A stretch of DNA of 64,000 nt from Candidatus Wildermuthbacteria bacterium (GCA_016181405.1 JACOZJ010000002.1:10608-74607); one strand, 5' to 3'. Counted from the first letter of the stretch, positions 4,976 through 57,050 are shown. The notes: generated by a model from the sequence alone, not told the origin. A program made the numbers and translations.

Positions 4976-4981
4976 AACCCT

Positions 4982-5393: not shown

Positions 5394-5401
5394 ACAAAAA
5401 A

Positions 5402-5424: not shown

Positions 5425-5426
5425 GT

Positions 5427-29883: not shown

Positions 29884-30028
29884 ATAGCTTTTATGGTAGC
29901 TCAAAAACTCTGCTTCCGCAAGTTTGACATTTAAGCAAAGTTATGCCACTCTTTGCAGTCGCATACCCGTAGACAGACGGTCAGAGCGATCGTCTTCTGA
30001 GCGAGTTACCAAACTCCCAAAGTCAAAA

Positions 30029-30068
30029 CCCCCACCGGTCGTATGACCGCGCCGGGGGATTTTCTTTT
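30029..30068. terminator. GC-rich hairpin terminator, copy A (usable on both strands)
   Basis: CCCCCACCGGTCGTATGACCGCGCCGGGGG followed by ATTTTCTTTT. On the minus strand TTTTG follows the hairpin after the stop of 30078-30539. It is 29/30 identical to 31355-31384. Confidence 0.65.
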
Positions 30069-30077
30069 AGTTTAAAA

Positions 30078-30539
30078 TTATGCCTGTCCAACTTTAATTT
30101 TACCTCCTGGGACACAAATGCTAATTTCCATTCCATAAGCCACTCCGGGAATTTTTACGCTTAAAAGTTCTACTGTATCATCGGCATGCGACTTTACGTC
30201 TGACGGACATGGGTAGTAAATATACCCTTCGTACTCCTTCCTCTCATAGTCGATCAATGTTTTTACGAACCAGAATGTCTCTGTAAGTTCTTCAAACCAC
30301 GTGCAAGTCACCCGATAATCTGGTTCAACTATCTTAAATGTGAACGGAGATATATCTACATTAATAGTACCACTATACATTTCGGAAATGCCCTCTACTC
30401 CCGCTTTCTCAAAGAATGGTTTTTGCAGAGCAATCGTATTGTTGAGTTTCATTCCGAGCTTAACTGGCGGATTTGGGTTCAAACCAGACGCTATTCTTAA
30501 CCCCTGTTTTATTTTCCCTTTTACCATTACTTCTTTCAT
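30078..30539 (-). CDS. Hypothetical protein (weak resemblance to the DUF120/CTP-dependent riboflavin-kinase beta-barrel)
   Basis: 153 aa. GKIKQGLRIASG...SGTINVDI...YYPCPSDVKSHADDTVELLS recalls G.V.SG.G...GTLN...H..EII. The family call is low confidence. Confidence 0.55.
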   Translation of the reverse strand: MKEVMVKGKIKQGLRIASGLNPNPPVKLGMKLNNTIALQKPFFEKAGVEGISEMYSGTINVDISPFTFKIVEPDYRVTCTWFEELTETFWFVKTLIDYERKEYEGYIYYPCPSDVKSHADDTVELLSVKIPGVAYGMEISICVPGGKIKVGQA

Positions 30540-30575
30540 GGAAGTATTATACGTTAAAATCCTCTTTCCGCAAAT

Positions 30576-30604
30576 TTGACAAGCTATAAAAATTGTGCTA
30601 CTAT
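30576..30604 (+). promoter_or_regulatory. Sigma70-like promoter of the GC-rich HAD cassette
   Basis: TTGACA (30576-81), a 17-nt spacer, then TACTAT (30599-604). A GGAAGGAGAG SD precedes the ATG at 30641. Confidence 0.55.
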
Positions 30605-30640
30605 TCCCCCAGTATCACCGCTCATAGGAAGGAGAGCGCG

Positions 30641-31345
30641 ATGGCGATCAAAGGGGTTGCCTTCGACCTGGAAGACACGGTTATTCATGTTGGTAACGTG
30701 CACTTTGAAGCATTCGCCCGTGCGGCGGAAGAGATCGGCGTCATATTCGACCGGAACAATCTGGCCGCAGACATCGCCCGCCAAATTGAGAATGCCATTG
30801 GAGGCGGAGACGCACTCATTGCCGAAGGCATCTCGCAATTATCGGGTAGGAGTGCTGCCGGAGCAGAGATTCGGCGCCGCAAGGTGAGGTTTTACGACGA
30901 GATCATAGAAGGCTTCGTTTCGATCGAACCTCGCCCTGGATTTTTGGACGTTCTGGAGCAAATTCGCACCCGGGGATTTCCAATAGCGATTGCATCGATG
31001 ACTCCGAGGAGGCAGGCGGAAATCCTGCTCGAGCGGTCGGGTATTGCCAAGATTTTCCCGGGAAACCTCATTCTTCTCGAGGATTCTGTGAAGCACCTCA
31101 AGCCGGCGCCTGATGTGTATCTTGAGGCGGCACGACGGATGGGGATTCCCCCGTCCAAACAGCTTGTCTTCGAAGATTCGGCCACCGGCATCAAGGCGGC
31201 TCGCGCTGCTGGATCGCCGGTAATCGCAATGCCCGGCTACACCTTCTCGGAGAATCTAACGAAACTCCGGGAAGCGGGTGCCACCAAGATCTTCTATGGT
31301 TGGGAGGAAGTGGACATCGCCGCTCTCCTCCAAGAGTTCGACTAA
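30641..31345 (+). CDS. HAD-IA family phosphatase (beta-phosphoglucomutase-like), GC-richer cassette
   Basis: Motif I is VAFDLEDTV (D-x-E variant). IASMT and FEDSATGIKAARAAG are present. The ORF-track start at 30593 lies upstream of the predicted -10 element. Confidence 0.8.
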   Translation: MAIKGVAFDLEDTVIHVGNVHFEAFARAAEEIGVIFDRNNLAADIARQIENAIGGGDALIAEGISQLSGRSAAGAEIRRRKVRFYDEIIEGFVSIEPRPGFLDVLEQIRTRGFPIAIASMTPRRQAEILLERSGIAKIFPGNLILLEDSVKHLKPAPDVYLEAARRMGIPPSKQLVFEDSATGIKAARAAGSPVIAMPGYTFSENLTKLREAGATKIFYGWEEVDIAALLQEFD

Positions 31346-31354
31346 ACCACCAAG

Positions 31355-31399
31355 CCCCCGCCGGTCGTATGACCGCGCCGGGGGCTTCTTTCTTTTTTT
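31355..31399 (+). terminator. GC-rich hairpin terminator, copy B
   Basis: CCCCCGCCGGTCGTATGACCGCGCCGGGGG followed by CTTCTTTCTTTTTTT. Confidence 0.7.
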
Positions 31400-31500
31400 A
31401 GGAGAGATTTTTTATCCAGTCCCCAATAGCCTCTTAGGAACTTTGCTCTTGAGAGGCTTATTTATTGATTTAGGAGAATGAATTTATTACAGTGGAAAGT

Positions 31501-32160
31501 ATGAGTTATCGAACAAAAGCAGTCATTTTTGATATGGATGGTACTCTTGTGAATACCGACGCCGTAACCCCTGAATTAGAGAAAAATATGTTGAAAGATT
31601 TGGGAGTTCCATACACCGATGAGTTTGAAAAAGAAATCAGCGGTTTGTCCATACGCGAATTGTACAGCCTTATACAAAAAAAATACGTTCCTGACTTTTC
31701 GGTAGAGAAGGCGAATAAAGCATACGCAGATCTCGCAAAAACAGTATACCAAGAACGATCGAGTTTAATGCCTGGGGCAAAGGAATTAATCTTTCTGTTG
31801 CAAAGAAAACATATTCCTATGGCTATAGCTTCCGCCGCACCCAAAGAATGGATCGATATGTTTGTGAAACGATTTGAATTTGAGGAAACATTTCAGCATC
31901 TTCTTTCGATACACTCCATGCAACTTCCTTCCAAGCCTAATCCAGCAATTTTCAACGAAGCAATCCAACTTTTAAACGTAGAGCCGCAAGATACGGTAAT
32001 TTTTGAGGATACGGCGAGAGGTGTTCAGGCAGGGAAGATGGCTGGCGCTCGCGTGGTCGCGGTGCCAGACAAAAGATGGAGTTTTGGAGATTTCAGCTCG
32101 GCAGATCTTGTTGCGAACACTCTGCAAGATCCAAATATAATCCCTTTTCTATTTTCCTAA
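31501..32160 (+). CDS. HAD-IA family phosphatase (canonical DxDGT)
   Basis: AVIFDMDGTLVNTD, ASAAPKEW and FEDTARGVQAGKMAGARVVAV. ATG at 31501 (GTG at 31492 is possible). Its 3' end overlaps the convergent aminotransferase by 12 nt. Confidence 0.82.
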   Translation: MSYRTKAVIFDMDGTLVNTDAVTPELEKNMLKDLGVPYTDEFEKEISGLSIRELYSLIQKKYVPDFSVEKANKAYADLAKTVYQERSSLMPGAKELIFLLQRKHIPMAIASAAPKEWIDMFVKRFEFEETFQHLLSIHSMQLPSKPNPAIFNEAIQLLNVEPQDTVIFEDTARGVQAGKMAGARVVAVPDKRWSFGDFSSADLVANTLQDPNIIPFLFS

Positions 32161-33381
32161 CGTTTCCGTCCAAACGCGGAGACGTTGGAAACCTTCGTCA
32201 ATTTCTTCGGGACTGCAGGCAAAAGAAAAACGAAGGTGGCCTTCGCCATAAGGGCCAAACGCAACGCCCGGAATCGTAACGACCTTGGCTTCTTGTAAGA
32301 TCTTCACGGCAAGTTCGGCAGACCCCAATCCAGACTTTTGATATTTCGCAAGAATATAATAAGCGCCTTGCGGTTTTTTATACTCAAAAAATCCAGAAAG
32401 TTCGTCTAACTTCTTACACATTAACTCACGGTTTTCCGTGAGTTTTTCTACAAACTCCGCAACGCTCTTTTGATCTCCGCGCAAAGCCGTAATGACTGCC
32501 TTTTGCGAAATGGCAGGCGCGCAAATAGCAAGAGCGTCGTGCACCTTAAGCATATGCGCCATAATGCCTTGCTCTGCAAACGCATATCCTACCCGGTAGC
32601 CGGTAAGAGCGTATTTTTTCGAAAAGCTTCCGCACAGAATAACACGATCTCGAATATCGGAAAAGGAAGCTGGAGAAACATGTGTTTTCCCTTCATAGAC
32701 AAGAAAGTCATATGTTTCGTCGGTTATAAGAACAAGGTCATGTTCTTTCGCGAGATCTGCCAAAATTCGCAGTTCCTCTTGGGCAAATACTGTTCCCGTG
32801 GGATTGGAAGGGTGTGAGAATAAAATCGCTTTTGTTTTTGGGCTCACCTTTTCGAGCAGAGCTTCTTTGTTTAAATGCCACCCGCGATCTTCATCTAAAG
32901 GCACAAACACTGGCACGCCGCCCAGCTGAAGAATTTGTTCTGAATACGATGCAAACGAAGGCGAAAGCAACAGTACTTCGTCGCCTTCGTCGACCACCGT
33001 AACCAAAGCGCACATAACGGCTTCCTGGCAGCCGGAACTTATCATAACTTCGCGAGAGAATTTTACGTTCTCAACCCCCTTTCTTGCCATTAAGTCTTTT
33101 GCCACAAGCTCTCGCAATTCTGTAATGCCGGGCTCCAAGGTATAGCGAGCAGTATCTCTTTCTTGCAGCGCCGCGCGGATGCCTTCCTTAATGTACTCTG
33201 GCGTATCGAAATATGGGATGCCCTGCCCAAAAGAAACAATTGTTGCTCCAGTATCTTGGCGCACCTCATCTGCCAGAATCGACATTTCTTTAATAGGCGA
33301 GAGAACGATTCTCTGCACGCGCTCTGAAATATTTTTTGTCCGGACCTCGCGACCCAAAGCCCCAAAAGCAGACCTATGCAT
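32149..33381 (-). CDS. Class I/II pyridoxal-phosphate aminotransferase (aspartate-aminotransferase-like)
   Basis: SHPSNPTG and the SFSKKYALTGYRVGY lysine box. Confidence 0.85.
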   Translation of the reverse strand: MHRSAFGALGREVRTKNISERVQRIVLSPIKEMSILADEVRQDTGATIVSFGQGIPYFDTPEYIKEGIRAALQERDTARYTLEPGITELRELVAKDLMARKGVENVKFSREVMISSGCQEAVMCALVTVVDEGDEVLLLSPSFASYSEQILQLGGVPVFVPLDEDRGWHLNKEALLEKVSPKTKAILFSHPSNPTGTVFAQEELRILADLAKEHDLVLITDETYDFLVYEGKTHVSPASFSDIRDRVILCGSFSKKYALTGYRVGYAFAEQGIMAHMLKVHDALAICAPAISQKAVITALRGDQKSVAEFVEKLTENRELMCKKLDELSGFFEYKKPQGAYYILAKYQKSGLGSAELAVKILQEAKVVTIPGVAFGPYGEGHLRFSFACSPEEIDEGFQRLRVWTETLGK

Positions 33382-33419
33382 ATAAAAATATTATACTCTT
33401 GTACTCACAACCCCGCAAC

Positions 33420-33448
33420 TTGACACTTCCTTAAACTTACATTATACT
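33420..33448 (+). promoter_or_regulatory. Sigma70-like promoter of the GC-rich two-gene island
   Basis: CCGCAAC-TTGACA (33420-25), a 17-nt spacer, then TATACT (33443-48). An AGGAGG SD lies at 33483-88. Confidence 0.55.
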
Positions 33449-33494
33449 AGCACCCACTGGAGATCCCAGCACACCATGGAGCAGGAGGCCAGAG

Positions 33495-34265
33495 ATGGTA
33501 GAGAAAGTCCGAGTGGACAATATCGCCAGCGTGGGGATCATCTACAGGAGGTTCCACCCAGACCAGATCTTGATTGACATCAAGGATGGAGGGTATCCGC
33601 TCAAGGCATTCAGGTGGATGCTCTGCCCCATCGGAGGAAACTGGATCGGGCCTACAGCCCGCAACGACCAGAACACCCGAGATACCTTGATCCGCGAGAT
33701 GAGCGAGGAACTCTCTCTCGATTCGAGGGAAACCTCCACGGAAGACGCAGCGCTGCTGGGCCTCGAGCCCGAGCAAGCGACATACGTGGTTCCCAAGAAG
33801 GGCGTTGCGTCGACCGACGAAGATCGCGAGAAGCTCGGGCGCCTCAAGGGGGCCTTCGCAAACACTGCAGAGCCCTTCGGTGATTTCCTAGTCAACGTAC
33901 CGAAGTCGGTGCTCGACCGGGGAGTCCCCGACAACACCCGGCCAGGTTACACTTCCATCCTTTCCTACTGGCGCGTGCCAGTGGACGAAGAGGATTGGGC
34001 GACTCTCGTCGATATGCATGCAAAGTACGGCAACCTCTCTGTCGAGAGTATAGCCGTAATCATCTCGCTCGAAGAAATCGTGACCACGCGCAGGCACACC
34101 TGCTGCGGCCACGATCGGATCCTGCAACAATGGTTTGCGAGCATGGGGTGCGTCGAAACGATGCATCTCCCCCTGCTCCCTGATATCTTCTGCGCCTACC
34201 TCCATCAACCGCTCGCGAGCTACGAAGAGTACCTCGAGCGGTACGAGGTAGTCAGGCACCCCTAG
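33495..34265 (+). CDS. Divergent Nudix-fold protein with a C-terminal extension (GC-rich island)
   Basis: GGNWIGPTARNDQNTRDTLIREMSEELSL aligns to the Nudix box (REMSEEL = REUxEEx), but the upstream Glu and the Gly are replaced. About 120 aa of unassigned C-terminal domain follow. Confidence 0.6.
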   Translation: MVEKVRVDNIASVGIIYRRFHPDQILIDIKDGGYPLKAFRWMLCPIGGNWIGPTARNDQNTRDTLIREMSEELSLDSRETSTEDAALLGLEPEQATYVVPKKGVASTDEDREKLGRLKGAFANTAEPFGDFLVNVPKSVLDRGVPDNTRPGYTSILSYWRVPVDEEDWATLVDMHAKYGNLSVESIAVIISLEEIVTTRRHTCCGHDRILQQWFASMGCVETMHLPLLPDIFCAYLHQPLASYEEYLERYEVVRHP

Positions 34266-34407
34266 CACCTTTCAAGCGCCTGGCGGAAATTCGTTTTCGT
34301 ATCAACGACAACGAACCCGCTCGGCGCTTCTTTTTTAGTTGACAACCGCAAAAAAAGTGGTAAGCTTTAACCACGAGGAATCGTAAACTACCGAAGGAGT
34401 TTCAAGC

Positions 34408-35247
34408 ATGGAGAACCTACAAGAAGAGCGTTGGCTCGCAATTGAGCTCGCGGTCCGCGGGGGCGAGATGATCCAAACAGCTCTCTCCTCTGCCAGATCT
34501 CCCGAGGCAATCGGGCGCAGGTGGTCGCGCGCGCGCCACACCGAAATCAAAACCAAGATCGACAAAGATGTCGATGATATGTTGAGAGGCGAAATCCAGC
34601 GCGCTTTTCTGGACGATGCGATTCTCTCTGAAGAGAATGCGCCTCGAGAAGGAAAGTCTGGGAGAGTTTGGGTCATTGATCCAATCGACGGCACTCTCAA
34701 CCTCCAAGATCCGCTTTTCGGAACATTTGGAGTATGCGTGGCTCTCGCGGTGGACAACGTCCCAGTCTTGGGAGTTGTCTTCTCGCCTGATGTAAGGGCT
34801 GGACGCGGTGGACGCATTTGGATCGGAGAAGAAGGCAAGCAAGCGCTTTACTCTCCCGATTATCCCAATGTGGAACCCACGGGAACGCACGTTTCTGACT
34901 GCGCCATACGCAATCACGCGATCGGCGCTTTCGACTCGGGCAAACACGATCGGGCTGTCGTGTATCCCTACGTGAAAAAACTGGATCACGACACAGCCGG
35001 CGTGACCTGCGTATACCGCATTGCTTCAGCATCCATGTCTCTTGCTGCGGTTGCAACTGGAGATTGGGATTTTTACGGTGCCACTTCTGCAGAATCCGAA
35101 GACCTATCAGCGATGGTCCCAATCTTGAAAGGCACCGGAGCTGTAGTCACCACTCTCGACGGCCGGCCGTGGACCATTAAAGAACCGTCGATCCTGACGG
35201 CCAACTCTGTACTCCATGGCGATCTCCTGCAGTACCTTAACTCATAG
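34408..35247 (+). CDS. Inositol-monophosphatase-family phosphatase (second, GC-rich paralogue)
   Basis: ILSEENAP, VWVIDPIDGTLNL and WDFYGATSAESEDL...GTGAVVTTLDG. A GAAGGAG SD is present. Confidence 0.8.
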   Translation: MENLQEERWLAIELAVRGGEMIQTALSSARSPEAIGRRWSRARHTEIKTKIDKDVDDMLRGEIQRAFLDDAILSEENAPREGKSGRVWVIDPIDGTLNLQDPLFGTFGVCVALAVDNVPVLGVVFSPDVRAGRGGRIWIGEEGKQALYSPDYPNVEPTGTHVSDCAIRNHAIGAFDSGKHDRAVVYPYVKKLDHDTAGVTCVYRIASASMSLAAVATGDWDFYGATSAESEDLSAMVPILKGTGAVVTTLDGRPWTIKEPSILTANSVLHGDLLQYLNS

Positions 35248-35255
35248 AACACAAG

Positions 35256-35288
35256 CCCCTGCTGTTGCCGGCAAGGGGATTTTCTTTT
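35256..35288 (+). terminator. Intrinsic terminator of the GC-rich island
   Basis: CCCCTGCTGTTGCCGGCAAGGGG followed by ATTTTCTTTT. The T-run overlaps the stop codon of the convergent truncated transketolase subunit. Confidence 0.65.
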
Positions 35289-35793
35289 ACAGGCGGATGT
35301 AGGCGGGGCCGTGCTCTACGTATGTTTTTTGGATAATATCCCGAGTTTCTTCCGGATCTTTTGGAATATACGTTTTCATTCCAGGCAGTTTGCTCAAAAA
35401 ATCAATTTCTTCGTCATCCCGCAAAAGATTGTGAGAAAACCCGAGGAACTTATATTTTTCAGACCCCTTCACCCCGAGGATTTTCACATTCGCTCCATGC
35501 ATGCAAATGGCGTTCCTCACCATCTCGTGAACTCTGAAGGTAACAAAATTAATCATGGAGTACAGATAGGGTTTCTTTCCGCTCAATGCCATGGCCGCGG
35601 CGATGATAGTTGAACTTGCCTCGGTCACGCCAAAATTGAAGAATCTTTCGGGATACAGTTTTTGGAATTTCTCTGTGTAGTTGAAACCGACGTCCGGAAT
35701 GATAAAAATAATATCCCTGTCTTTTTCTGCCAACTCGCAGAGAGTATCAATGAACGCCCGACGGTTATCTAATTGTTGTACTATTTCACCCAT
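35287..35793 (-). CDS. Transketolase C-terminal-subunit homologue, truncated (pyrimidine-binding domain only)
   Basis: 168 aa ending ...EHGPAYIRL*. The paralogue at 43176-44105 continues about 140 aa beyond the equivalent QKPAYLRIGKG. Confidence 0.65.
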   Translation of the reverse strand: MGEIVQQLDNRRAFIDTLCELAEKDRDIIFIIPDVGFNYTEKFQKLYPERFFNFGVTEASSTIIAAAMALSGKKPYLYSMINFVTFRVHEMVRNAICMHGANVKILGVKGSEKYKFLGFSHNLLRDDEEIDFLSKLPGMKTYIPKDPEETRDIIQKTYVEHGPAYIRL

Positions 35794-35794
35794 T

Positions 35795-36580
35795 CTATGC
35801 TTTGTTTAGCTCTTCCATCGCTTCCTCAAACTCTTCTTGCGATAGATTTTTGTAATGGTACACGTTGTTGTTTTCCGCCCTCTTCCAACCTTTTCCCTTA
35901 ATTGTATCGCATACAATCATGCGCGGGGACTGGACACGAGATCCTGCAAAAGCAGCTTCAATCTGTTCAAAATTATGGCCATCTATCCGCTCCACAGCCC
36001 AACCAAATGCCCGAACCCTCTCGTCGAGCGGTTCAATGTTCAAAATCTCTTCTGTTTTTCCCATTGCCTGAAATCGATTGTTGTCCACCCACACCACAAG
36101 ATTTGAAAGGCCATGCTGCTTGGCGATTAAGATTGATTCCCACGTAGTACCTATTTGCATTTCTCCATCTGACATAAGAATATGGGTTGTTCCATTGTCC
36201 GCGTTGAGTTTTTTTGCCAAGGAGAACCCAACGCCCGCAGGCAAACCAAACCCCATGCTTCCGCCGGCAAATTCCAGCCCAAACTTTCCTTGCGGCTCTA
36301 TCAGACCTATATATTTTGTTTCGTTCGGCTGGCAATATCGTTCCAAATCTTTCTCTGGGATAACCCCCTTTTGCCCAAGGAAATAATACACAGAAGCCGC
36401 CACCCAACCCTTGCTTGCAATAAATGTATCTTTCTGAAGATCCATTTTCTCGAAGAGAACGCTTAATATATCGATACAGCTAAAGTTACTCCCAATATGG
36501 CTGGATTGGGCTTTGTAAATCATACGGAGAACGGTTTTACGCGCATCGTTAGTTATTTTCGTGTACTCATTAGGTGTCAT
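35795..36580 (-). CDS. Transketolase N-terminal (ThDP-binding) subunit
   Basis: SSHIGSNFSCIDILSVLF, GSMGFGLPAGVGFS and LMSDGEMQIGTTWESI. Confidence 0.85.
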   Translation of the reverse strand: MTPNEYTKITNDARKTVLRMIYKAQSSHIGSNFSCIDILSVLFEKMDLQKDTFIASKGWVAASVYYFLGQKGVIPEKDLERYCQPNETKYIGLIEPQGKFGLEFAGGSMGFGLPAGVGFSLAKKLNADNGTTHILMSDGEMQIGTTWESILIAKQHGLSNLVVWVDNNRFQAMGKTEEILNIEPLDERVRAFGWAVERIDGHNFEQIEAAFAGSRVQSPRMIVCDTIKGKGWKRAENNNVYHYKNLSQEEFEEAMEELNKA

Positions 36581-37170
36581 TGGAAAATTTTTAAAACAGT
36601 TTGAAGAATAATATTCAAATCCACCAGAAAATTCCTTTCTCTCACATATTTCATCTGCAGGCGCATCTTCTCTGGCCGTATTTTCTCCTGGTACGTTTTT
36701 TCCGGATCTGCACTTCCCCGCAAAATTTCTCCTTCATGAAAATTCCATAAAGAAGCCCAATCGGTCATGCCGGGCCGCACAGAAAGGATAACATTTCTTT
36801 CTTCGGATGTCATCATATCCACATAAAACGGCACTTCCGGTCTTGGACCTACAATGCTCATTTCTCCCTTTATGACGTTAAGAAGCTGGGGCAGTTCGTC
36901 GAGCTGAAACTTTTTCAAAAACTTTCCCATGCGGGTTAGCCGAGGATCGTCGCCTGCCGTGGAAGGCCCTCCTATTTTATCAGCGTTTTGCACCATGCTG
37001 CGAAACTTAAACATACGGAATTCTTTTCCCTGCTTCCCCACTCTTAACCCTTTGTAAAACACGGGACCCGACGAATCCAGTTTAATCGCGAAGGCGATGG
37101 CAAGAAAGATAGGAGCTATCAGTATAAACCCGAACAATGCTGCTATAAAATCAAAGACTCTTTTTACCAT
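36577..37170 (-). CDS. Monotopic phosphoglycosyl transferase (PglC/WbaP C-domain family, initiating sugar-1-P transferase)
   Basis: KRVFDFIAALFGFILIAP, FKFRSM, LDELPQLLNVIKGEMSIVGPRPE. Confidence 0.9.
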   Translation of the reverse strand: MVKRVFDFIAALFGFILIAPIFLAIAFAIKLDSSGPVFYKGLRVGKQGKEFRMFKFRSMVQNADKIGGPSTAGDDPRLTRMGKFLKKFQLDELPQLLNVIKGEMSIVGPRPEVPFYVDMMTSEERNVILSVRPGMTDWASLWNFHEGEILRGSADPEKTYQEKIRPEKMRLQMKYVRERNFLVDLNIILQTVLKIFQ

Positions 37171-37909: not shown

Positions 37910-38004
37910 ACAATATGTTCAATCTTACCAATTTTCTCTTGCAAAAACAATTCGTGCAAAATAGGAGAGCCCACGCTGTACACGTGAGCCCCTTCGCAAT
38001 ACGT

Positions 38005-39054
38005 TTAGCGACCCTCAACAAGATCGCAGATTGCCGATGCCCCAACAGCGGGATCGAACGGCATAAGTTGATCTCGCGCCTCGCTGGAGCAAGGATTCAG
38101 CAAGGCCAAGTTCACAGGAGTTACCACGAGATCCGCGACGCCAAGTACCACCTGCGGCACCTCCAGCAAACCAGACTCTTCCTGGAGAGATTTCTGAACC
38201 GCCGGCGTCACAAGAGCAGCTACAGGAACTCCTGCTTTAGCTGCCGTCGTCAGCAACGTGGAAAATCCGGCGAGAACCAAATCCGAAGCAACAACAATGT
38301 TATCGGTTGGTGGCCCGTCCACACGAACTACACGATCCCCAAGCGGCGCCAGCAAGGCGTTCCACGTTTCCCGGTACGGCTGGTTGCCGTTTTTTTTATC
38401 CGGGCGGTCTGCCTCTTTAGGGTGCCAACGAGGGATCAGCTTCCACGGTTTGCTCGTAACCGCCAAGCATTGGGATAGAAGATCTATCTGCTCGGCGGTT
38501 TCGGAGCCGCCTCCGCAGAATGCAATAACCAGTTCGCCTCCATACCGCATCCAATAAACCTCCGGGTCTGGCTCAACGCCCACCCGAACACCAGGATTGC
38601 CCGTGATGCATATCTTCGTCTTTCGGCCAAAATCTTGCCGGACAAGGCTTGATGAATACTCATCAAGCGTAAGCGCAAGATCTGGAGGTCGGCGAAGGCC
38701 GGTGATGCGTCGGAAACCTCCCCAAAAATCCTCCATGAGAACCAGTGGAATATGGTGAATTTGCGCAGCGCGCGCAAACTCCCCTTCCAAATGGCTCGGG
38801 GAACCTACGCCCACAACCACCACGTCGGGACGATAATATCCAAGTACCGCTCCCACATCCAGCGAGAAAGGAACTATCCTGTAGTCATCGGTACCGCGGA
38901 AGATCGGCGGTACCGAGCACAGCTGGGACCAAAGATAAGCCCCCATCCCCTCTAAAACGGGGAACACCTCGTGGCCCTGGTTGCTTAACACCTGCGCAAT
39001 GGGGGCAACCACGTTAGCTCCACCCATATCCTTGCAAACCGTCACTATCTTCAA
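38005..39054 (-). CDS. GC-rich uncharacterised protein, possibly a GT-B-fold glycosyltransferase-like enzyme
   Basis: 349 aa with a TTG start and AAGGGG 8 nt upstream. MKIVTVCKDMGGANVVAPIAQVL and two Rossmann-like halves are present. No diagnostic motif was recognised. It lies between a terminator and the next methyltransferase. Confidence 0.55.
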   Translation of the reverse strand: MKIVTVCKDMGGANVVAPIAQVLSNQGHEVFPVLEGMGAYLWSQLCSVPPIFRGTDDYRIVPFSLDVGAVLGYYRPDVVVVGVGSPSHLEGEFARAAQIHHIPLVLMEDFWGGFRRITGLRRPPDLALTLDEYSSSLVRQDFGRKTKICITGNPGVRVGVEPDPEVYWMRYGGELVIAFCGGGSETAEQIDLLSQCLAVTSKPWKLIPRWHPKEADRPDKKNGNQPYRETWNALLAPLGDRVVRVDGPPTDNIVVASDLVLAGFSTLLTTAAKAGVPVAALVTPAVQKSLQEESGLLEVPQVVLGVADLVVTPVNLALLNPCSSEARDQLMPFDPAVGASAICDLVEGR

Positions 39055-39083
39055 CTCACGCCCCTTTCAAACAGCTAACTACA

Positions 39084-39118
39084 AAAAAGCACAAAAAATC
39101 GGGAACGTCAAGTTTCCG
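39084..39118 (-). terminator. Intrinsic terminator after methyltransferase 39146-39970
   Basis: The minus strand reads CGGAAAC-ttgac-GTTCCCG followed by ATTTTTTGTGCTTTTTT. Confidence 0.6.
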
Positions 39119-39145
39119 ATTTTCAAAACTCTCACCTATTTACTA

Positions 39146-39970
39146 TTACTTCTTATGCAGCTCAAACGTAAACATCCACGACATCATTTTTATGAGTGGG
39201 ATCTTGAGGAATACTTTGTCTAAAGCATTCAAAAAAGGCAGGGCAGAAGGCACGTACGCAGCTGCAATACTAAACAAATGCCAATGCCTAATGTTTTTTA
39301 CCTCAAAAAATCTTTTTGCAAACCCAATCTCTTTGTAGGAAAGAATGTGCCGCTTTTCCCAATCAGTGCGCAAATGAGGCGTAAGCATACGATACGCCTT
39401 AATGGCAGGGTTGCAATCCAATGCCTCCACTGCCAAAAGCACTCCTCCCTTTTTCAAAATCCTCCTTAACTCCGGAAACGCATACGATAAATCCAAATGA
39501 TGCAGCATGCCAGAGCAGATAACAACATCCACAGATTCATTAGGAAGACCGGTATTCTCGCAATCTCCCTGGAGAAAATAGGTATTTCTCAAAACCCCTT
39601 CTTTTTCGGCTAACGCGCGGGCATTCTTAATAGAAACATCGCTTATATCCAAACCAATTGCCAACTCTGCCCCTGCTTTTGCCGCTTTCACGGCATTCTC
39701 CCCATCGCCGCAGGCATAATCCAAAAAGATTTTGCCCTTGCTATATTGAGCTATCCAGGCATCAACATACTCATTAATGAGGTGCGCGGTCTGGTAGAAC
39801 TTGGCATTCTCGTGAAGCTTCTCATACTCGCCTTCCGCAAGTGTTTTATCTTTGTCTATATTATGAAATTCAATTTCCTTTTGTTTCCTCTCGTCCAAAG
39901 AAGCTAGCCACTCCTCGTTTGTCTTCTTGCTTACACTGTCTAGTTGTTCAATAAGTTCTTGTGTAGTCAT
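39146..39970 (-). CDS. Class I SAM-dependent methyltransferase
   Basis: FLDYACGDGENAVKAAKAGAELAIGLDIS and VVICSGMLHHL. Confidence 0.82.
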   Translation of the reverse strand: MTTQELIEQLDSVSKKTNEEWLASLDERKQKEIEFHNIDKDKTLAEGEYEKLHENAKFYQTAHLINEYVDAWIAQYSKGKIFLDYACGDGENAVKAAKAGAELAIGLDISDVSIKNARALAEKEGVLRNTYFLQGDCENTGLPNESVDVVICSGMLHHLDLSYAFPELRRILKKGGVLLAVEALDCNPAIKAYRMLTPHLRTDWEKRHILSYKEIGFAKRFFEVKNIRHWHLFSIAAAYVPSALPFLNALDKVFLKIPLIKMMSWMFTFELHKK

Positions 39971-41867: not shown

Positions 41868-43179
41868 GTATCTTATCTCTATACGGCTCCAAAAACCTCA
41901 GCAGTACGTCAGTCATATAGCGCATTTTTTCTTTCGTGATGCCAGAATAGACGCCAATCCAAAGCAAATTTTCCATAATCGAATCTGTGTTGCTCAAAGA
42001 ATCGAAAACCCGATATTTTATATCTTTATACGCAGGCTGCTTTAAAAGATTGCCGCCCAGAAACATCCGCGTCATGACTTTCCGCTCTTCCAAAAACTCC
42101 ACCATTTCTTTCCTAGTGAAAGGAGCTGCTTGCTTTACAAGCATAGGAAACCCAAACCAGCAGGGGTCTGCCTCTTTTTCCTGCCGGGGGAAAGCGAGAA
42201 ACTTGCTATAGGGCCCAAGAGCTTGTTTAAGCGCTGCAAAGTTCTTTTCCCTTGCTTCTATAAACGAAGGCAGTTTTTCGAGCTGCGCCAAACCAATAGC
42301 GGGCTGAAGATCAGTAATCTTAAGATTGTACCCGATATGGGAAAAGATGTATCTGCGATCATATCCGAAAGGCAATTCTCCCACTTTCGAGGAAAACCGG
42401 TTGGTTTGCATCCCAGGTTCGTCGAATTCCCTGCCCCAATCCCGGAAAGAAGCAACAATATTCTTGAGTGTTTCGTTGCTCGTGAGCACCGCGCCCCCTT
42501 CCCCCATAGTCATGTCGTGGCTTGCGTAAAAACTGCAAGTAGCAATATCGCCAAAGGTTCCCGTATACTTTCCCTGATACTTCGATCCTACGGCATCACA
42601 ATTGTCTTCAATAAGCCATAGCTTGTGCTTTTTTGCGATACGCAAAAGCTCCCGAAGGTTCGCGGGGTTACCAAGCCCGTGAGCCACAAAAATTGCCTTT
42701 GTTTTTGGAGAAAGCGCCTTTTCAATATCTCCAACCTTAATATTATACGTGTCGAGCTCAACATCGAGGAAAACAGGAACAAGGTTATTCTGCACGATGG
42801 GATTGAGTGTGGTAGGAAATCCGCAAGCAGTGGTGATAACTTCGTCTCCCGGCTTCAGCTGTCTTGCTCCCAGTTTTGGGGAAGTGAGCGCCGAAACAGC
42901 AAGCAGATTTGCAGAAGATCCAGAATTTGCAAGAAGACAATACTTTACTCCGAGAAACGCGGCAAATTCTTTTTCGAACTGCGCTGCAAATCTACCCATG
43001 GAGAGCCAAAAATCCAAAGCAGCATCCACCAAATTCATCATTTCTTTTTCGTTGTACACGCGGCCACCATAGCTAATCTGCGTCTGGCCTGGCAGGAATG
43101 TTTCCTGGCTTTTCCGCGCTTTGTAAAACTCTTTTGTGAGCTTTAAAATTTCTTTTCGCAGCTGTTTTTCTGTTTTCAT
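41857..43179 (-). CDS. rfbH: NDP-4-keto-6-deoxyhexose 3-dehydratase (RfbH/DdhC/E1-type, DegT superfamily)
   Basis: LVDAALDFWLSMGRFAAQFEKEFAAFLGVKYCLLANSGSSANLLAVSALTSPKLGARQLKPGDEVITTACGFPTTLNPIVQN is the RfbH signature region. The ATG at 43179 forms an ATGA overlap with the transketolase subunit stop. Confidence 0.85.
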   Translation of the reverse strand: MKTEKQLRKEILKLTKEFYKARKSQETFLPGQTQISYGGRVYNEKEMMNLVDAALDFWLSMGRFAAQFEKEFAAFLGVKYCLLANSGSSANLLAVSALTSPKLGARQLKPGDEVITTACGFPTTLNPIVQNNLVPVFLDVELDTYNIKVGDIEKALSPKTKAIFVAHGLGNPANLRELLRIAKKHKLWLIEDNCDAVGSKYQGKYTGTFGDIATCSFYASHDMTMGEGGAVLTSNETLKNIVASFRDWGREFDEPGMQTNRFSSKVGELPFGYDRRYIFSHIGYNLKITDLQPAIGLAQLEKLPSFIEAREKNFAALKQALGPYSKFLAFPRQEKEADPCWFGFPMLVKQAAPFTRKEMVEFLEERKVMTRMFLGGNLLKQPAYKDIKYRVFDSLSNTDSIMENLLWIGVYSGITKEKMRYMTDVLLRFLEPYRDKIHEE

Positions 43180-44105
43180 AGACTCTCTTTTATGTGGCGC
43201 TGGATGCGCTCTGCCATTGCTTCTGGCGATAATCCATACGCTTGCCGCAGATATTCCTGACTTCCAATCTCTTTGCAAAAGCTGTCCGGAAATCCAATGC
43301 GCGCAAAAAGTGGCTTCGCATCTTTATATTCTGCCAGCGTCTCGGCAACTGCTCCTCCTAATCCGCCGATAATACTGTGTTCCTCAATAGAGAAAATGGC
43401 TTTCGTTTCTCGCGCCGCTTTGTGTATTGCCTCTTTATCAATAGGTTTCACGCTTGGCATGCTAAACAAACACACGCTCAACCCAGCTTGGCCGAGAATC
43501 TTTGCAGCTTCTCTCGCGTTCCATAAAATATTCCCCGTTGCGAAGATGCTAATATCGCTCCCATCCCGCAGAAGAATTGCCTTTCCAGGCGCAAAATCAG
43601 GTTTCTTCTCGTGCACTATAGGATCATTTCCCTTCCCGATACGGAGATATGCTGGCTTTTGTGATGTAGAGAGATACGCCATTATCGCCTGTGTTTCTGC
43701 GGGATCTCCCGGGCAAAAAACTTCCATATTTGGCAGGCTTCTCATAATAGCAATGTCGTTTAAAGAATGGTGGGTAAGACCTGCGGTACCGTATGATAAA
43801 CCGCCTCCCACCCCAACCAATACGACGGGCAAATTTGCAGAACATACATCATTTCGAATCTGTTCAAAACAGCGCATGGTAACAAAAGGCACAATGGAAT
43901 ACACGAAAACTTTTTTCGCTGAATGCGCAACTCCTGCCGCGACACCAATCATATTCTGTTCTGCGACTCCCACGTTCAAGAAACGTTTGGGAAATTTTTG
44001 TTCAAACGGCTCCAATACGGAAAACCCCAAATCGTTGGTAATAAGCATAACACTTTCTTCTTTTTCTGCTGCTTCAAGTAAACTGTCGCAAAACGCTTTT
44101 CTCAT
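43176..44105 (-). CDS. Transketolase C-terminal subunit (pyrimidine-binding plus C-terminal domains), full length
   Basis: FLNVGVAEQNMIGVAAG, GGLSYGTAGLTHH and EEHSIIGGLG. Confidence 0.88.
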   Translation of the reverse strand: MRKAFCDSLLEAAEKEESVMLITNDLGFSVLEPFEQKFPKRFLNVGVAEQNMIGVAAGVAHSAKKVFVYSIVPFVTMRCFEQIRNDVCSANLPVVLVGVGGGLSYGTAGLTHHSLNDIAIMRSLPNMEVFCPGDPAETQAIMAYLSTSQKPAYLRIGKGNDPIVHEKKPDFAPGKAILLRDGSDISIFATGNILWNAREAAKILGQAGLSVCLFSMPSVKPIDKEAIHKAARETKAIFSIEEHSIIGGLGGAVAETLAEYKDAKPLFARIGFPDSFCKEIGSQEYLRQAYGLSPEAMAERIQRHIKESL

Positions 44106-44905
44106 AGAGAACGAATTTCTTCTATTGCCTGCTGATATTGTTCTTCATTTGGCGATTTATAGTGCCAATCTAACTTATTCTCCATATACGATACTCCCTT
44201 CCCGTTTATGGTGTGAGCCACAAGCACTGTGGGTTTCCCCTGCTCTTGCGGAATAGCTTTCAGCGCGCGCTCGAGCTCCTCATAGCTATGCCCGTCCACA
44301 CTTCCAGCGACCCACCCAAAGTCTTGCCATTTTTTCTCCAAAGGCTCCAAATTCAGGATATCGTTTGTTTTTCCAAAACCCTGAAACTTATTGTAATCTA
44401 CAATAGCAACAAGATTGTCCAGCTTATGATGACTGGCAAAGAGCGCCGCTTCCCACAAAGCACCTTCGTCGCATTCTCCGTCGCTCAAAAGCACAAATAC
44501 TCGCTCCTTTCCATTACCCCTCTTTTCAGCAAGCGCCATGCCGGCCCCAATAGACAAACCATGGCCAAGAGATCCTGTGGAGACTTCAACGCCGGGCACG
44601 CAATCTTTTGTGGAGTGGCCGGTCAATGTTCCTCCATCCGTACAATAGGAATCAAGAACCTCCGCAGGGAAAAATCCTCGCTCTGCAAGCGTGGCATACA
44701 GGGCCGAAGCCGCGTGTCCTTTACTTAGAATAAACCGATCGCGCGGCCCATGAGGATTTTTCGGATCTATTGATAAGATGCCAAAATACAAAACCGTGAG
44801 GATATCGGCACACGACAAAGCACAAGCCACATGAGAATTTTTGGCCAAAAATGCCATTCGCACGATATTCTCCCGAATCTGTTTTGCCAAACTGCTATAA
44901 TCCAT
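44102..44905 (-). CDS. Transketolase N-terminal (ThDP-binding) subunit
   Basis: SKGHAASALYATL, GSLGHGLSIGAGMA and LLSDGECDEGALWEAA. Confidence 0.88.
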   Translation of the reverse strand: MDYSSLAKQIRENIVRMAFLAKNSHVACALSCADILTVLYFGILSIDPKNPHGPRDRFILSKGHAASALYATLAERGFFPAEVLDSYCTDGGTLTGHSTKDCVPGVEVSTGSLGHGLSIGAGMALAEKRGNGKERVFVLLSDGECDEGALWEAALFASHHKLDNLVAIVDYNKFQGFGKTNDILNLEPLEKKWQDFGWVAGSVDGHSYEELERALKAIPQEQGKPTVLVAHTINGKGVSYMENKLDWHYKSPNEEQYQQAIEEIRSL

Positions 44906-46838: not shown

Positions 46839-47348
46839 ATGGACATCAATGGCGTTGATCTTTCAAAACTACCCCAGAGCGAGCTGAAGGTGCTCGCGGC
46901 ACGGGCCATACGGCTCGTGCAGAATCCCGAAAAGGGAATCGGCACAGAGCTCTTCGAGGCCTTGCTGAAGATCGTGCCTCAAGCCTGTGTCGAGACGGTG
47001 GTGGTGGATGACCTGAACCATCCCCACCGTATCTACCTCACGTGGCGGGAGGACGAGCATTACCGAGGTTGGCATTGCCCGGGCACCTACATTCGCCTCG
47101 GCGAGAGCTTCGAGGACGCCATCCGCCGCGTTCTCCAGCAAGAGATCAATGTGGAGCTCCGCAACTTTCGCTCCACAAAGATCCAGTACAGTCATGTAGA
47201 CTCCCGCGGCCACACCATCGGGACCGTCTGGCTTGTCCAGGCCGATGGAGAGCCGACCGGCGGGAAGTGGCTCCGCGTCAGCCAGCTCCCCGAGCCGACG
47301 CTCCCCCACCACGTCCAGTTCATCCAAGAGGTATTGAGCAAGCTATAG
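46839..47348 (+). CDS. Divergent Nudix-fold protein (GC-rich cassette)
   Basis: CPGTYIRLGESFEDAIRRVLQQEINVEL aligns to PGG....GES...A..RE..EE.G, but REUxEE is replaced by RRVLQQE. Confidence 0.6.
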   Translation: MDINGVDLSKLPQSELKVLAARAIRLVQNPEKGIGTELFEALLKIVPQACVETVVVDDLNHPHRIYLTWREDEHYRGWHCPGTYIRLGESFEDAIRRVLQQEINVELRNFRSTKIQYSHVDSRGHTIGTVWLVQADGEPTGGKWLRVSQLPEPTLPHHVQFIQEVLSKL

Positions 47349-49971: not shown

Positions 49972-50997
49972 TTATGCGTCTTGGCAAGCTTCCACGAACA
50001 GCCGCGCAAAATGTTCTTTGGTAAAAGGCTTATAGTGCTCCGACTCCAAGAAACGGCGACCGTTTTCTTTATATGTTTTTATTTCTTCTTGCGATAGCTG
50101 TTTCAAAAACTTCCGCAGCTCTTCGTAGTTTCTGAAATCTCGCATATCAATAAAGCAATTTTTCGGGATATATTCTTCAATATCGGGCGCCCCCAAATAC
50201 AGGGGAACTGTTCCTGCGTAGAAGCAATCAAATATTTTGTCGGTGATATACCCTGGAAGCTCGCAGTTTTCGACAGCAAACGCAAATGTATATTGGCTTA
50301 ATGTTTTGTACTTATCCTCCACCGAACCCTTATAGGTTTTTCGTATTGCATCTCCCGCGAACCAATACGGGAAAAGGGGGCGGGCATCCCATCCAAAGCC
50401 GTACAAATCTATGTCATGCGTTTTGCCAAAAAACAGAATCGCCCGAACTCGCTCTGTAAGCAGTTCTTTGTAGCGCGACAGGGAGTTTCGGTTTGAATTG
50501 ATAAGAGTAAGAAACGCGCGGTTTTCATTTTTCCAATATTCAGGGAACAAACTCTCGTGTGCTTGGGGAGTGTGAAAATATTGGGCTTTTGTGCCGGGAA
50601 TTTTCCATGTGAAGAAAGCTTTGTCGTATGCGCGCATGGCGCTCTTTGCGATATAGCGAATCTCGGGCATTACAGTGGGCGGCTCAAAATGAAATAATAT
50701 TCGCTTTTTGAATTTTGCGAGATCCACTCGAGGGTATTGAGGATTTCTTTTGCGCCAGTACCATTTCCGCAAGAAAAACTTGTGATCAAAAGAAACATAT
50801 ACGTCTTGCGCGCCTGCCTTTTTGCGATCCCAGAAATCAATTGTCTGTAGATTAATTCCCTGCTTTGCGCAGTATTCGCTCAAAAAGATAACTGGCTCGC
50901 GGCAGTTGTTTGTATTATATCTATCACTTCTTTCAAACAACACATTCTGCAGATGCACGTATGAGTTTGGATCAAGATATACGTTTTGCATACACAT
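49972..50997 (-). CDS. GT10-family (alpha-1,3/4-fucosyltransferase-like) glycosyltransferase
   Basis: FAFAVENCELPGYITDKIFDCFYAGTVPLYLGAPDIEEYIP matches the GT10 FENS..DYVTEK...G.VPVY block. Confidence 0.78.
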   Translation of the reverse strand: MCMQNVYLDPNSYVHLQNVLFERSDRYNTNNCREPVIFLSEYCAKQGINLQTIDFWDRKKAGAQDVYVSFDHKFFLRKWYWRKRNPQYPRVDLAKFKKRILFHFEPPTVMPEIRYIAKSAMRAYDKAFFTWKIPGTKAQYFHTPQAHESLFPEYWKNENRAFLTLINSNRNSLSRYKELLTERVRAILFFGKTHDIDLYGFGWDARPLFPYWFAGDAIRKTYKGSVEDKYKTLSQYTFAFAVENCELPGYITDKIFDCFYAGTVPLYLGAPDIEEYIPKNCFIDMRDFRNYEELRKFLKQLSQEEIKTYKENGRRFLESEHYKPFTKEHFARLFVEACQDA

Positions 50998-52276: not shown

Positions 52277-52279
52277 ATC

Positions 52280-52846
52280 TTATTCAAACAGCGTACTTTC
52301 GATTAAATCCGATAGCGTATGAATAACAAGCGCATGCATTTCTTGAATGCGCGGAGTATCTTCTGCGGGAATATTAATCAGAAAATCGCACAGTTCCTTC
52401 ATACTTCCTCCCGACCTCCCTGTTAAGCCTACTACCTTGCAGCCAGCCTGCCTTGCGGCCTTTATTGCCTCCAACACATTCTCTGAATTGCCAGAAGTGC
52501 TTATCCCAAAGAAAACATCGCCTGGTCTGGCCAATGCTTCTACCTGCCTCGCGAACACATACTTAAATGCATAATCGTTTGAAATGGCAGTTATCGCCGA
52601 AGGATTTATGTCCAGCGCAATAACTGGCAGAGCTCTTCGTTCCTTTCTGAATCTTCCCACAAGTTCTGCTGCAAAGTGATGGGCATCTGCCACGGAGCCA
52701 CCGTTGCCCGCTACCAAAACCTTGTTCCCCGACCGTAAAGCTTCCACGCAAAGCACAGCCACGCCTTCAATGTCGGGCATCTCATTTACAAACTTACGTA
52801 CCGTATCAATATGGGCCTCTATGTGGCTTTTGATTATTTCTTTCAT
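52280..52846 (-). CDS. gmhA: Sedoheptulose-7-phosphate isomerase (SIS domain)
   Basis: VLVAGNGGSVADAHHFAAELVGRF and FGISTSGNSENVLEAIKAARQAG. Confidence 0.88.
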   Translation of the reverse strand: MKEIIKSHIEAHIDTVRKFVNEMPDIEGVAVLCVEALRSGNKVLVAGNGGSVADAHHFAAELVGRFRKERRALPVIALDINPSAITAISNDYAFKYVFARQVEALARPGDVFFGISTSGNSENVLEAIKAARQAGCKVVGLTGRSGGSMKELCDFLINIPAEDTPRIQEMHALVIHTLSDLIESTLFE

Positions 52847-52849
52847 GAT

Positions 52850-53722: not shown

Positions 53723-53735
53723 AGTTTTATTATTA

Positions 53736-56370: not shown

Positions 56371-56373
56371 AGG

Positions 56374-57033: not shown

Positions 57034-57050
57034 ATGATGAAATACATTTA

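Follow-up and report, generated by a model that had tools for sequence, protein, structure and literature searches.

A short transketolase-like subunit, apparently native, beside a probably exchangeable Nudix-fold/phosphatase cassette in a Patescibacteria surface-glycan cluster

In a stretch of 64,000 nucleotides (nt) from a Candidatus Wildermuthbacteria bacterium (GCA_016181405.1 JACOZJ010000002.1:10608-74607, one strand; hereafter the window, with positions counted from its first letter), a GC-rich island of two plus-strand genes abuts a conspicuously short transketolase (TK)-like gene on the minus strand. The island, which lies within positions 33,382 to 35,793, encodes a Nudix-like protein and a phosphatase of the inositol monophosphatase (IMPase) family. 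Has the island damaged the gene next to it, or is that gene short by nature? A preliminary description of the sequence preferred damage: a foreign insertion of about 1.9 kb would have split an operon of TK-N, TK-C and an aminotransferase, deleted the C-terminal domain of TK-C and crippled this first transketolase pair. Our analysis makes that very improbable. Instead we favour, with a probability of about 0.7, a native mini-transketolase accompanied by an exchangeable Nudix/IMPase cassette within a glycan cluster of Patescibacteria, an account in which the substrates and the direction of the indel are our inference. The features on which the argument turns are as follows.

32149-33381, minus strand: class I/II (aspartate/aromatic-type) aminotransferase of 410 amino acids (aa), PF00155 at E 3.4e-62; the backbone gene flanking the slot
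33390-33418, minus strand: promoter-like site of the aminotransferase, TTGCGG (33418-33413), 17-nt spacer, TATAAT (33395-33390)
33420-33448, plus strand: promoter-like site of the cassette, TTGACA-17-TATACT, matching at 11 of 12 positions
33495-34265, plus strand: divergent Nudix-fold protein of 256 aa (open reading frame ORF256), assigned by predicted fold and family alignment; no Pfam or NCBIfam match
34408-35247, plus strand: IMPase-family phosphatase of 279 aa, PF00459 Inositol_P at E 2.9e-34
35256-35286, no strand assigned: GC-rich hairpin and T-run between the convergent IMPase and TK-Pyr genes
35287-35793, minus strand: TK-Pyr, 168 aa, PF02779 Transket_pyr only, E 9.3e-20, profile positions 2-167 of 174
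35795-36580, minus strand: TK-N, the subunit with the pyrophosphate-binding (PP) domain, 261 aa, PF00456 at E 3.4e-25; 1 nt from TK-Pyr
36577-37170, minus strand: small PglC-type phosphoglycosyl transferase (Bac_transf), PF02397 at E 3.5e-60; 4-nt overlap with the TK-N start

The preliminary description had correctly located the genes, the promoter-like site at 33420, the hairpin at 35256-35278 and the GC-rich segment, where GC content rises to 55-61% from about 46%. It was also right that TK-Pyr ends (...GPAYIRL*) at a point beyond which a 309-aa paralogue in the same window, to whose residues 2-156 it aligns with 39% identity, runs on for about 150 residues. This early stop speaks for the insertion-and-truncation account, together with the GC-richness of the island, its opposite strand and its absence from a collinear relative. 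That same relative, L001 (GCA_001003785.1; comparison genomes and contigs carry L numbers), nevertheless refutes truncation, as its TK-Pyr is also 168 aa long and 86% identical although no island is present. The exact 168-aa protein is annotated in a Candidatus Wildermuthbacteria metagenome-assembled genome (MAG). Its best 120 clusters (at 90% identity), which extend to 64% identity and span Wildermuth-, Jorgensen-, Colwell-, Uhr- and Paceibacteria and one WOR-3-labelled MAG, fall without exception within 136-179 aa and have PF02779 only; the length is exactly 168 aa in 105 of the 120. In each of the 16 other genomes or contigs whose neighbourhoods were examined (L001-L005, L010-L018, L019, L058, L060, L062 and L063), TK-Pyr comes directly after a TK-N of about 260 aa. 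Single-domain homologues of 168 aa paired with an N subunit of about 260 aa are hence a large family, and the claim that an insertion removed the 3' third of TK-C falls with this observation.

The missing domain has left no trace near the island. A six-frame tblastn of the window with the C-terminal 150 residues of the paralogue, at E up to 100, returned the paralogue only, and within 33382-35300 no match was better than E 12, so that the remnants which the preliminary description had suggested looking for were not found. In the relatives, no TKC domain (PF02780) was seen beside TK-Pyr by tblastn in L001, L004 and L010-L018, or in the gene tables of L058-L060, L062 and L063. Among solved structures, TK-Pyr is closest to the C chain of the split transketolase from Carboxydothermus hydrogenoformans (ChTK; 6YAJ/6YAK), and the alignment covers chain positions 35-191 of 341, ending at ...GPVYIRL. 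Since the Pyr domain of this chain comprises residues 1-162 and its TKC domain residues 164-312 (PMC7661550), the alignment end matches the domain limits and TK-Pyr stops at the Pyr/TKC boundary. Purifying selection, strong in TK-Pyr, has kept both subunits, with dN/dS values (Nei-Gojobori method, here and below mainly against the closest relative, L019) of 0.055 for TK-Pyr and 0.13 for TK-N.

Such a two-domain architecture is not without precedent among enzymes dependent on thiamine diphosphate (ThDP). The PP and pyrimidine-binding (PYR) domains alone are needed for binding and activation of ThDP, and the role of extra domains such as TKC has been described as obscure (PMC2831816). Sulfopyruvate and phosphonopyruvate decarboxylases, classified in TEED, have PP and PYR only, sometimes as separate chains, and a third domain is therefore not needed for ThDP catalysis (PMC2831816); these enzymes belong to the decarboxylase lineage, whereas the window proteins are clearly TK/DXS-like by sequence. 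Judged from the conservation of its sequence and length, the 168-aa TK-Pyr is a naturally short form and not a product of truncation, and the lineage appears never to have had a TKC domain in this ThDP enzyme.

Whether the island split an operon is a separate matter. The aminotransferase has its own promoter-like site. Its GTATAAT, like the ATATG at the start codon, does not vary between the window, L019, L023 and L001, which lacks the island. The -35 hexamer is weak (3/6) and hence absent from the promoter scan, the site having been read directly from the sequence. Because the ATG (33381) lies 8 nt downstream of this conserved TATAAT and no Shine-Dalgarno sequence is present, a leaderless-type mRNA is suggested. 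With GTATAAT conserved in every case, with and without the island, the aminotransferase is probably transcribed on its own, and so the island did not split a dependent operon; functionally, this part of the preliminary description does not hold. The TTGACA of the cassette promoter-like site is the reverse complement of a TGTCAA that is invariant in 4 of 4 aligned loci, L001 included. At the other end, the hairpin at 35256-35278, which the signal scan lists on the minus strand, folds with -14.8 kcal/mol as plus strand and -13.6 kcal/mol as minus strand, and is followed on the plus strand by AUUUUCUUUUA, which runs into the TK-Pyr stop codon TAA at 35287-35289. From these features the element at 35256-35286 is likely a bidirectional terminator.

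If TK-Pyr is complete, what might the pair do? Active-site residues were mapped onto E. coli TktA in the window and 12 related loci, down to 50% identity. TK-N, whose best solved relative is 6YAK (135 bits), keeps H26, D155/G156, N185 and H261, and TK-Pyr keeps E411, F437 and H473. The GDG-X(25-30)-N motif for ThDP/Mg is present in TK-N as SDGE...DNN, the equivalents of D155, G156 and N185 are kept in every locus where TK-N spans them (12 of 13), and the cofactor-activating glutamate E411 (E58 of TK-Pyr) is invariant throughout the 13 loci. The residues with which transketolase binds sugar phosphates, H66, H100, H461, D469 and R520, are in contrast not kept. H66W, H100L and D469L are identical in every alignable locus (11, 12 and 13 loci, respectively), the H461 position holds K in 11 of 13 loci with R and Q in the other two, and all TK-Pyr chains stop 2 residues before the position of R520. 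Because these sugar-phosphate-binding residues are replaced, we speak of a TK-like pair and not of a bona fide transketolase (EC 2.2.1.1). As the replacement is of a fixed kind while the cofactor residues are kept, TK-N and TK-Pyr look like an active ThDP enzyme whose substrate is not one of the ketose phosphates that transketolases normally use. The suggestion that this pair might be non-functional appears to be contradicted both by the cofactor residues and by dN/dS values of 0.055-0.13.

ChTK is the best solved relative of both subunits (E 2e-21 and 2e-38 for the two), and the GDG...N motif and the catalytic Glu are common to both systems. The C chain of ChTK, however, contains the TKC domain and the canonical substrate residues, whereas the window family lacks the former, has H66W, H100L, H461K and D469L with no R520 equivalent, and is found in glycan clusters instead of among pentose-phosphate genes. 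A second TK-like pair is present in the window at 43176-44905 (minus strand; 267 aa and 309 aa), with a complete TKC domain and two DegT aminotransferases flanking it. This pair keeps H66 and H100 and has H461G, D469A and R520K, and because of these three changes it is, by sequence, also unlikely to be a standard pentose-phosphate transketolase.

The genomic company of the short pair offers a hint on its substrate. Patescibacteria carry it in a compact module with the order (aspartate-type aminotransferase) - Bac_transf - TK-N - TK-Pyr - DegT - PglF-like, seen in L004, L010, L012-L016, L018, L062 and L063. In L062, a WOR-3-labelled metagenome contig, Bac_transf and TK-N form a single ORF of 469 aa (2171-3580), after which come genes for a TK-Pyr of 168 aa and a PglF-like protein; the fused ORF links the ThDP enzyme with the initiating transferase. 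The module resembles the PglF-PglE-PglD-PglC (EpsC-N-M-L) pathway to UDP-N,N'-diacetylbacillosamine (PMC10653937) in combining a membrane-type 4,6-dehydratase (Polysacc_synt_2), a DegT aminotransferase and a small Bac_transf. It differs in that no PglD-type acetyltransferase is found in the compact module, where a TK-like ThDP enzyme, often with an aspartate-type aminotransferase, stands in that place. In the mechanism that we propose, the backbone would consist of a PglF-like 4,6-dehydratase, a DegT aminotransferase, a PglC-like transferase, the two-subunit ThDP enzyme and usually an aspartate-type aminotransferase. Since the ThDP enzyme is encoded where PglD would be expected and its TK-N subunit is fused to Bac_transf in L062, our best guess is that it would act on a UDP-4-keto or UDP-4-amino-6-deoxy-N-acetylhexosamine (HexNAc) intermediate.

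How, then, did the island come to lie between TK-Pyr and the aminotransferase? The window and L001 are collinear at 73-84% DNA identity with three exceptions. The first is the island itself, at 33397-35332: L001 lacks a segment of about 1.85 kb here, and only 95 nt separate its TK-Pyr stop codon from the start of its aminotransferase gene; the second is 37996-39146, a GC-rich 349-aa ORF against 92 nt in L001; and the third is 29930-32179, two haloacid dehalogenase (HAD) genes and a 153-aa ORF against two unrelated genes in L001. The island is therefore a real indel. In 400-nt windows over 33400-35200 the GC content is 0.54-0.61, against 0.43-0.48 in the flanks and 0.464 in the whole window, and the GC content at third codon positions (GC3) is 0.75 for ORF256 and 0.57 for the IMPase gene, against 0.42-0.52 in neighbouring genes. 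The island is not the sole such patch, as 30600-31400 and 38000-39000 reach equal GC.

An assembly chimera within a MAG contig would also give so abrupt a change in GC. The exact proteins occur, however, on 3-5 independently assembled contigs, and in L019, L059, L060, L023 and L054, which come from independent samples, the slot holds related cassettes between the same flanking genes. We regard the chimera as practically negligible. The slot is empty in L001, L011, L017 and L018. It holds ORF256 and IMPase in the window and in L054, ORF256 alone in L023, and ORF256 (76% identical), IMPase (64%), a canonical NUDIX protein and an AAA_33 kinase in L019, L059 and L060. In L058 it holds a small NUDIX protein, a 90-aa ORF, an aldo-keto reductase and IMPase (69% identical), with an HNH gene alongside. 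The occupied slots of other lineages have the same orientation as the window, with cassettes on the plus strand. Because related cassettes fill the same slot in distant lineages (L019/L060, L023, L054 and L058), a single foreign insertion is too simple; what survives of the insertion proposal is that the segment is absent from the collinear relative and anomalous in composition and strand.

The boundaries of the cassette show how its content may have changed. DNA identity to L019 is 93-97% in the aminotransferase (whose protein is 92% identical to the L019 orthologue and 79% to that of L001) and 95-99% in TK-N, and falls abruptly to 56-78% across the cassette; dS against L019 is 0.98 and 1.59 in the cassette genes, where values above 1 are saturated and approximate only, and 0.20-0.30 for TK-N and the aminotransferase. 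L060 and L019 are the same on the aminotransferase/ORF256/IMPase side and differ on the TK side, where TK-N of L060 is 61% and that of L019 95% identical to TK-N of the window. This mosaic pattern fits, and so argues for, recombinational exchange of cassettes between conserved flanks. The L019 cassette is GC-rich too (GC3 0.80 and 0.63), and the module is also found in Patescibacteria of higher GC (L013, module GC 0.49-0.61), so that a GC-richer relative is a plausible donor. We found no mobility gene in the window cassette, and no direct or inverted terminal repeats or target-site duplication at the island boundaries near 33430 and 35284. From these sequence comparisons, the slot is a recurrent, recombining accessory site and not the scar of a one-off foreign insertion.

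The same facts can be arranged differently, with the cassette ancestral and vertically inherited, the empty slots (L001/L011, L017 and L018) as deletions, and divergence and GC content as gene-specific traits. The slot is, after all, filled in the same orientation in L023, L054 and L058, whose TK-Pyr shares only 50-53% identity with that of the window. High GC marks the cassettes of the window and L019 alike despite a dS of about 1 to 1.6, and the cassette flanks carry neither target-site duplication nor terminal repeats. Vertical descent does not readily explain why identity falls abruptly at both cassette edges beside flanks that are 93-99% identical, why L019 and L060 are mutually mosaic, or why cassette content differs by lineage, and a GC3 of 0.75 is hard to sustain without import in a genome with a GC3 of about 0.45. 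We consider it somewhat unlikely. On the exchange reading, the gap between TK-Pyr and the aminotransferase would be a recombination-prone slot, either empty or holding a plus-strand accessory cassette with its own promoter and a shared terminator; recombination in the conserved flanks would probably pass cassettes between Patescibacteria, and that of the window probably came from a GC-richer relative.

Some further observations concern this and neighbouring variable sites. In L058, from a Paceibacterota genome, the HNH-type endonuclease gene (4974-5558) lies between the cassette IMPase and TK-Pyr, and may hint at the way in which the slot becomes open to exchange; no other cassette version has an HNH gene next to it. 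The GC-rich insert at 37996-39146 (GC 0.56; ORF 38005-39054, minus strand) lies between two methyltransferase genes and is lacking from both L001 and L019. Its 349-aa protein has no match in Pfam, NCBIfam, PADLOC, PHROGs or PDB sequences, and a single-sequence AlphaFold2 (AF2) model with a pLDDT of 41.6 was unusable. The variable block 29930-32179 comprises HAD genes at 30593-31345 and 31492-32160 (plus strand) and an ORF at 30078-30539 (minus strand); the first HAD gene has a GC3 of 0.63 and a 59% identical homologue at the same place in L019, and the two HAD phosphatases adjoin the aspartate-type aminotransferase. A further indel of this hypervariable cluster is seen at L019:9648-10636, where about 1 kb between Bac_transf and methyltransferase genes has no counterpart in the window.

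We now turn to the cassette proteins. ORF256 had no usable match in Pfam, NCBIfam, PADLOC or PHROGs, nor did its family profile among PDB sequences. The PF00293 NUDIX model did not match ORF256 of the window, and matched 3 of 40 family members at E about 0.09. The family itself is sizeable, with 42 clusters by word-indexed search and 312 representatives at 50% identity by full profile search, 128 of them with E <=1e-30 and mostly about 255 aa long; it is an unannotated family for which the libraries searched (Pfam, NCBIfam, PADLOC and PHROGs) hold no model. An AF2 model built with 40 homologues gave a pLDDT of 95.4 and a pTM of 0.91 and shows one compact fold. All 50 of the 50 best Foldseek matches in the PDB are of Nudix fold (best E 3.3e-4, probability 0.91-1.00, target TM up to 0.67), among them MutT-type proteins, RppH, NUDT16, NUDT9/TRPM2, NadM-Nudix and GDP-mannose mannosyl hydrolase. 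The Nudix character noted from the sequence is thus borne out by structure prediction, and we assign the predicted fold with confidence.

Conservation within the family points to a variant of the Nudix box. REMSEEL is present, as the preliminary description had it, and the box is more complete than was noted there, since G47, G48, G52, D58, R67, E68, E71 and E72 are invariant in the 40 homologues, as are N49, W50 and T64. The variant box reads G47-G48-x3-G52-x5-D58-x8-R67-E68-x2-E71-E72. Against the Nudix box GX5EX7REUXEEXGU, the REMSEELSL core is present, the upstream half is G48-x9-D58-x8-RE without conservation of the canonical E, and S stands in place of the terminal G. A second invariant group (W168, S182, E184, S185, G218, Y243 and Y246) lies in the C-terminal half, where G205-H206-D207 is conserved in at least 90% of members. 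With a dN/dS against L019 of 0.17, ORF256 is read, on its predicted structure, as an active pyrophosphohydrolase of a new Nudix subfamily.

The second cassette protein scores 119.2 bits against PF00459, for which the cut-off is 27, and its metal-binding motifs ILSEEN and VIDPIDGT are present, while the WD motif is degenerate (SEDLSA) with the D kept. Only 6 close clusters were found, at 65-69% identity and all from Patescibacteria where the source is named, and the close relatives whose contigs were examined (L058, L059/L060) sit in the same slot. Its dN/dS is 0.09-0.18, and by sequence both cassette genes appear to encode functional enzymes. A count over 33 distinct informative ORF256 loci found, at a distance of up to 2.5 kb, IMPase in 7, TK-Pyr in 4, DegT aminotransferase in 5 and a second ORF256 in 3. 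As a small genome has about one IMPase gene by our own estimate, 7 in 33 is far above chance; the co-occurrence raised by the preliminary description as a point to check is real, and the Nudix-like protein and IMPase are a recurrent pair under purifying selection. On two unrelated contigs (L028:5971-8470 and L051:5986-8462) a triplet ORF256 - IMPase - ORF256 occurs on one strand, the pair being duplicated around the phosphatase.

Taken together, we propose that the substrate of the Nudix enzyme would be a nucleoside-diphosphate-linked compound, in all likelihood a nucleotide-sugar or another cluster intermediate, and that cleavage would yield a nucleoside monophosphate and a phosphorylated moiety, which the IMPase-type phosphatase would then dephosphorylate. 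A pathway intermediate would in this way be released, re-routed or cleared, so that the glycan varies. A number of points weigh against this account as a whole. The upstream half of the Nudix box deviates, and for this reason the catalytic competence of ORF256 is not assured. For the IMPase, no characterised equivalog (SuhB, HisN, CysQ or FBPase/IMPase) scores above its NCBIfam cut-off, the best being HisN with 97.5 bits against a cut-off of 275. ORF256 has no IMPase within 2.5 kb in 26 of the 33 loci, and many of its homologues sit among housekeeping genes, e.g. tRNA synthetases and RNase J, because of which the family is not glycan-specific. The comparison genomes are all MAGs or metagenome contigs, the saturated dS values make the cassette divergence approximate, and the difference between the window and L001 may be a gain in the former or a loss in the latter.

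Patescibacteria depend on salvage, and the pair could accordingly be read as serving general nucleotide salvage or house-cleaning (e.g. of ADP-ribose, CoA or NAD(P) derivatives and the phosphorylated products that these give) with no role in glycans and a merely permissive intergenic slot. Most ORF256 homologues do lie outside sugar clusters, by genes for tRNA synthetases, RNase J and tRNA methyltransferase, and ADP-ribose and RNA pyrophosphatases are among the nearest folds. A permissive slot would hardly account for reuse of exactly the TK-Pyr/aminotransferase gap in at least 4 lineages, or for ORF256 lying between a DegT aminotransferase and an NDP-sugar (nucleoside diphosphate-sugar) dehydratase/epimerase in L006, L007 and L008, and the aldo-keto reductase or kinase added in other cassettes fits the handling of a sugar-like substrate. 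We hold the salvage explanation unlikely. A small, GC-anomalous, variable island with a Nudix-type protein, and with an HNH gene by its L058 version, could also suggest anti-phage defence or a phage-derived module; as no island protein matches PADLOC or PHROGs and the context is always sugar-nucleotide or housekeeping genes, this is barely credible.

Known systems supply partial parallels for the proposed glycan role. The Foldseek match of rank 23, 1RYA, is the GDP-mannose mannosyl hydrolase Gmm/WcaH/NudD, a Nudix enzyme of the E. coli colanic-acid cluster that acts on a nucleotide-sugar. It is like ORF256 in its Nudix fold, non-canonical box and location in a polysaccharide cluster, and unlike it in being about 160 aa long, without detectable sequence similarity and without an IMPase partner. 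HisC and HisN are the transaminase/phosphatase pair of histidine synthesis, and HisN provides the top-scoring model, though below its cut-off, for the window IMPase. In the capsule of C. jejuni, serinol decoration involves the transaminase Cj1437 and the phosphatase Cj1435 (PMC11800397). These pairs and the window have in common a class I/II-type aminotransferase beside a phosphomonoesterase in a glycan cluster; Cj1435, however, is a HAD phosphatase, and the closest solved relatives of the window aminotransferase are amino-acid transaminases (1DJU, an aromatic aminotransferase, at 240 bits). ThDP enzymes are also found in nucleotide-sugar clusters, where the sugar-branching YerE and the E1-like AviB1/AviB2 attach a two-carbon unit to 4-keto sugars. 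Pairs of E1 alpha/beta type adjoin ORF256 homologues in L007, L020 and L043. YerE and AviB1/AviB2 belong to ThDP subfamilies other than that of the TK-like pair.

The locus is embedded in one glycan cluster that occupies about 26.8-64 kb of the window, nearly all on the minus strand. Its further content is as follows.

About 26.8-64 kb, mostly minus strand: PglF-like dehydratase, DegT aminotransferase, TK-like pair, methyltransferases and GT2 glycosyltransferases
About 26.8-64 kb: the complete second TK pair, flanked by DegT genes; a GNAT acetyltransferase gene and a canonical NUDIX gene
About 26.8-64 kb: NTP-transferases, GT10 glycosyltransferase and polysialyltransferase-like protein
About 26.8-64 kb: SIS-domain, NeuB, CMP-transferase, Wzx, RmlC-like and GHMP-kinase genes

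A nonulosonic-acid branch is recognisable at 49972-58545, with NeuB (52850-53722), CMP-transferase (57748-58545), SIS, GFO/IDH/MocA and SDR genes, the polysialyltransferase-like protein (50972-52276) and the GT10 fucosyltransferase-like protein; a Pfam scan of the 26.8-64 kb proteins revealed no nucleotide-releasing enzyme of the NeuC or PseG type. Another rare plus-strand gene within this minus-strand cluster is the canonical 169-aa NUDIX gene (46839-47348; PF00293, E 4.9e-10), located between GNAT and Exo_endo_phos genes. Biosynthesis of phosphonates (2-aminoethylphosphonate) was considered and rejected, since a phosphoenolpyruvate mutase is lacking and the ThDP subunits resemble TK/DXS and not Ppd.

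Nothing in these findings is categorically new. In the literature searched we found no description of a natural, widespread TK-like enzyme without TKC and with a fixed, remodelled substrate site in glycan clusters, and nothing relevant on transketolase genes in O-antigen or bacillosamine clusters or on TKC-less transketolases in Patescibacteria. The analysis corrects a plausible mis-annotation, in that an apparently truncated transketolase appears to be a widespread ThDP enzyme that has two domains by nature and an altered active site, and that in the ultra-small Patescibacteria is connected with the opening steps of surface-glycan synthesis. It also defines an unannotated family of predicted Nudix fold, comprising 312 clusters at 50% identity, in which a phosphatase partner recurs; both enzyme families offer clear targets for biochemistry. 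More speculatively, the acetyl-transfer step of PglD may be replaced in Patescibacteria by the TKC-less enzyme, giving an undescribed C-branched or unusually acylated sugar, with the swappable cassette, with or without kinase or aldo-keto reductase, as a strain-level switch for sugar editing. We think this rather improbable; if true, it would mean new ThDP-dependent sugar chemistry and a new nucleotide-sugar subfamily of Nudix enzymes. For the biology of these episymbiotic bacteria, the slot would be a concrete recombination hot spot by which they vary their surface sugars, and surface glycans are probably central to their attachment to the host and to the evasion of phage and host responses.

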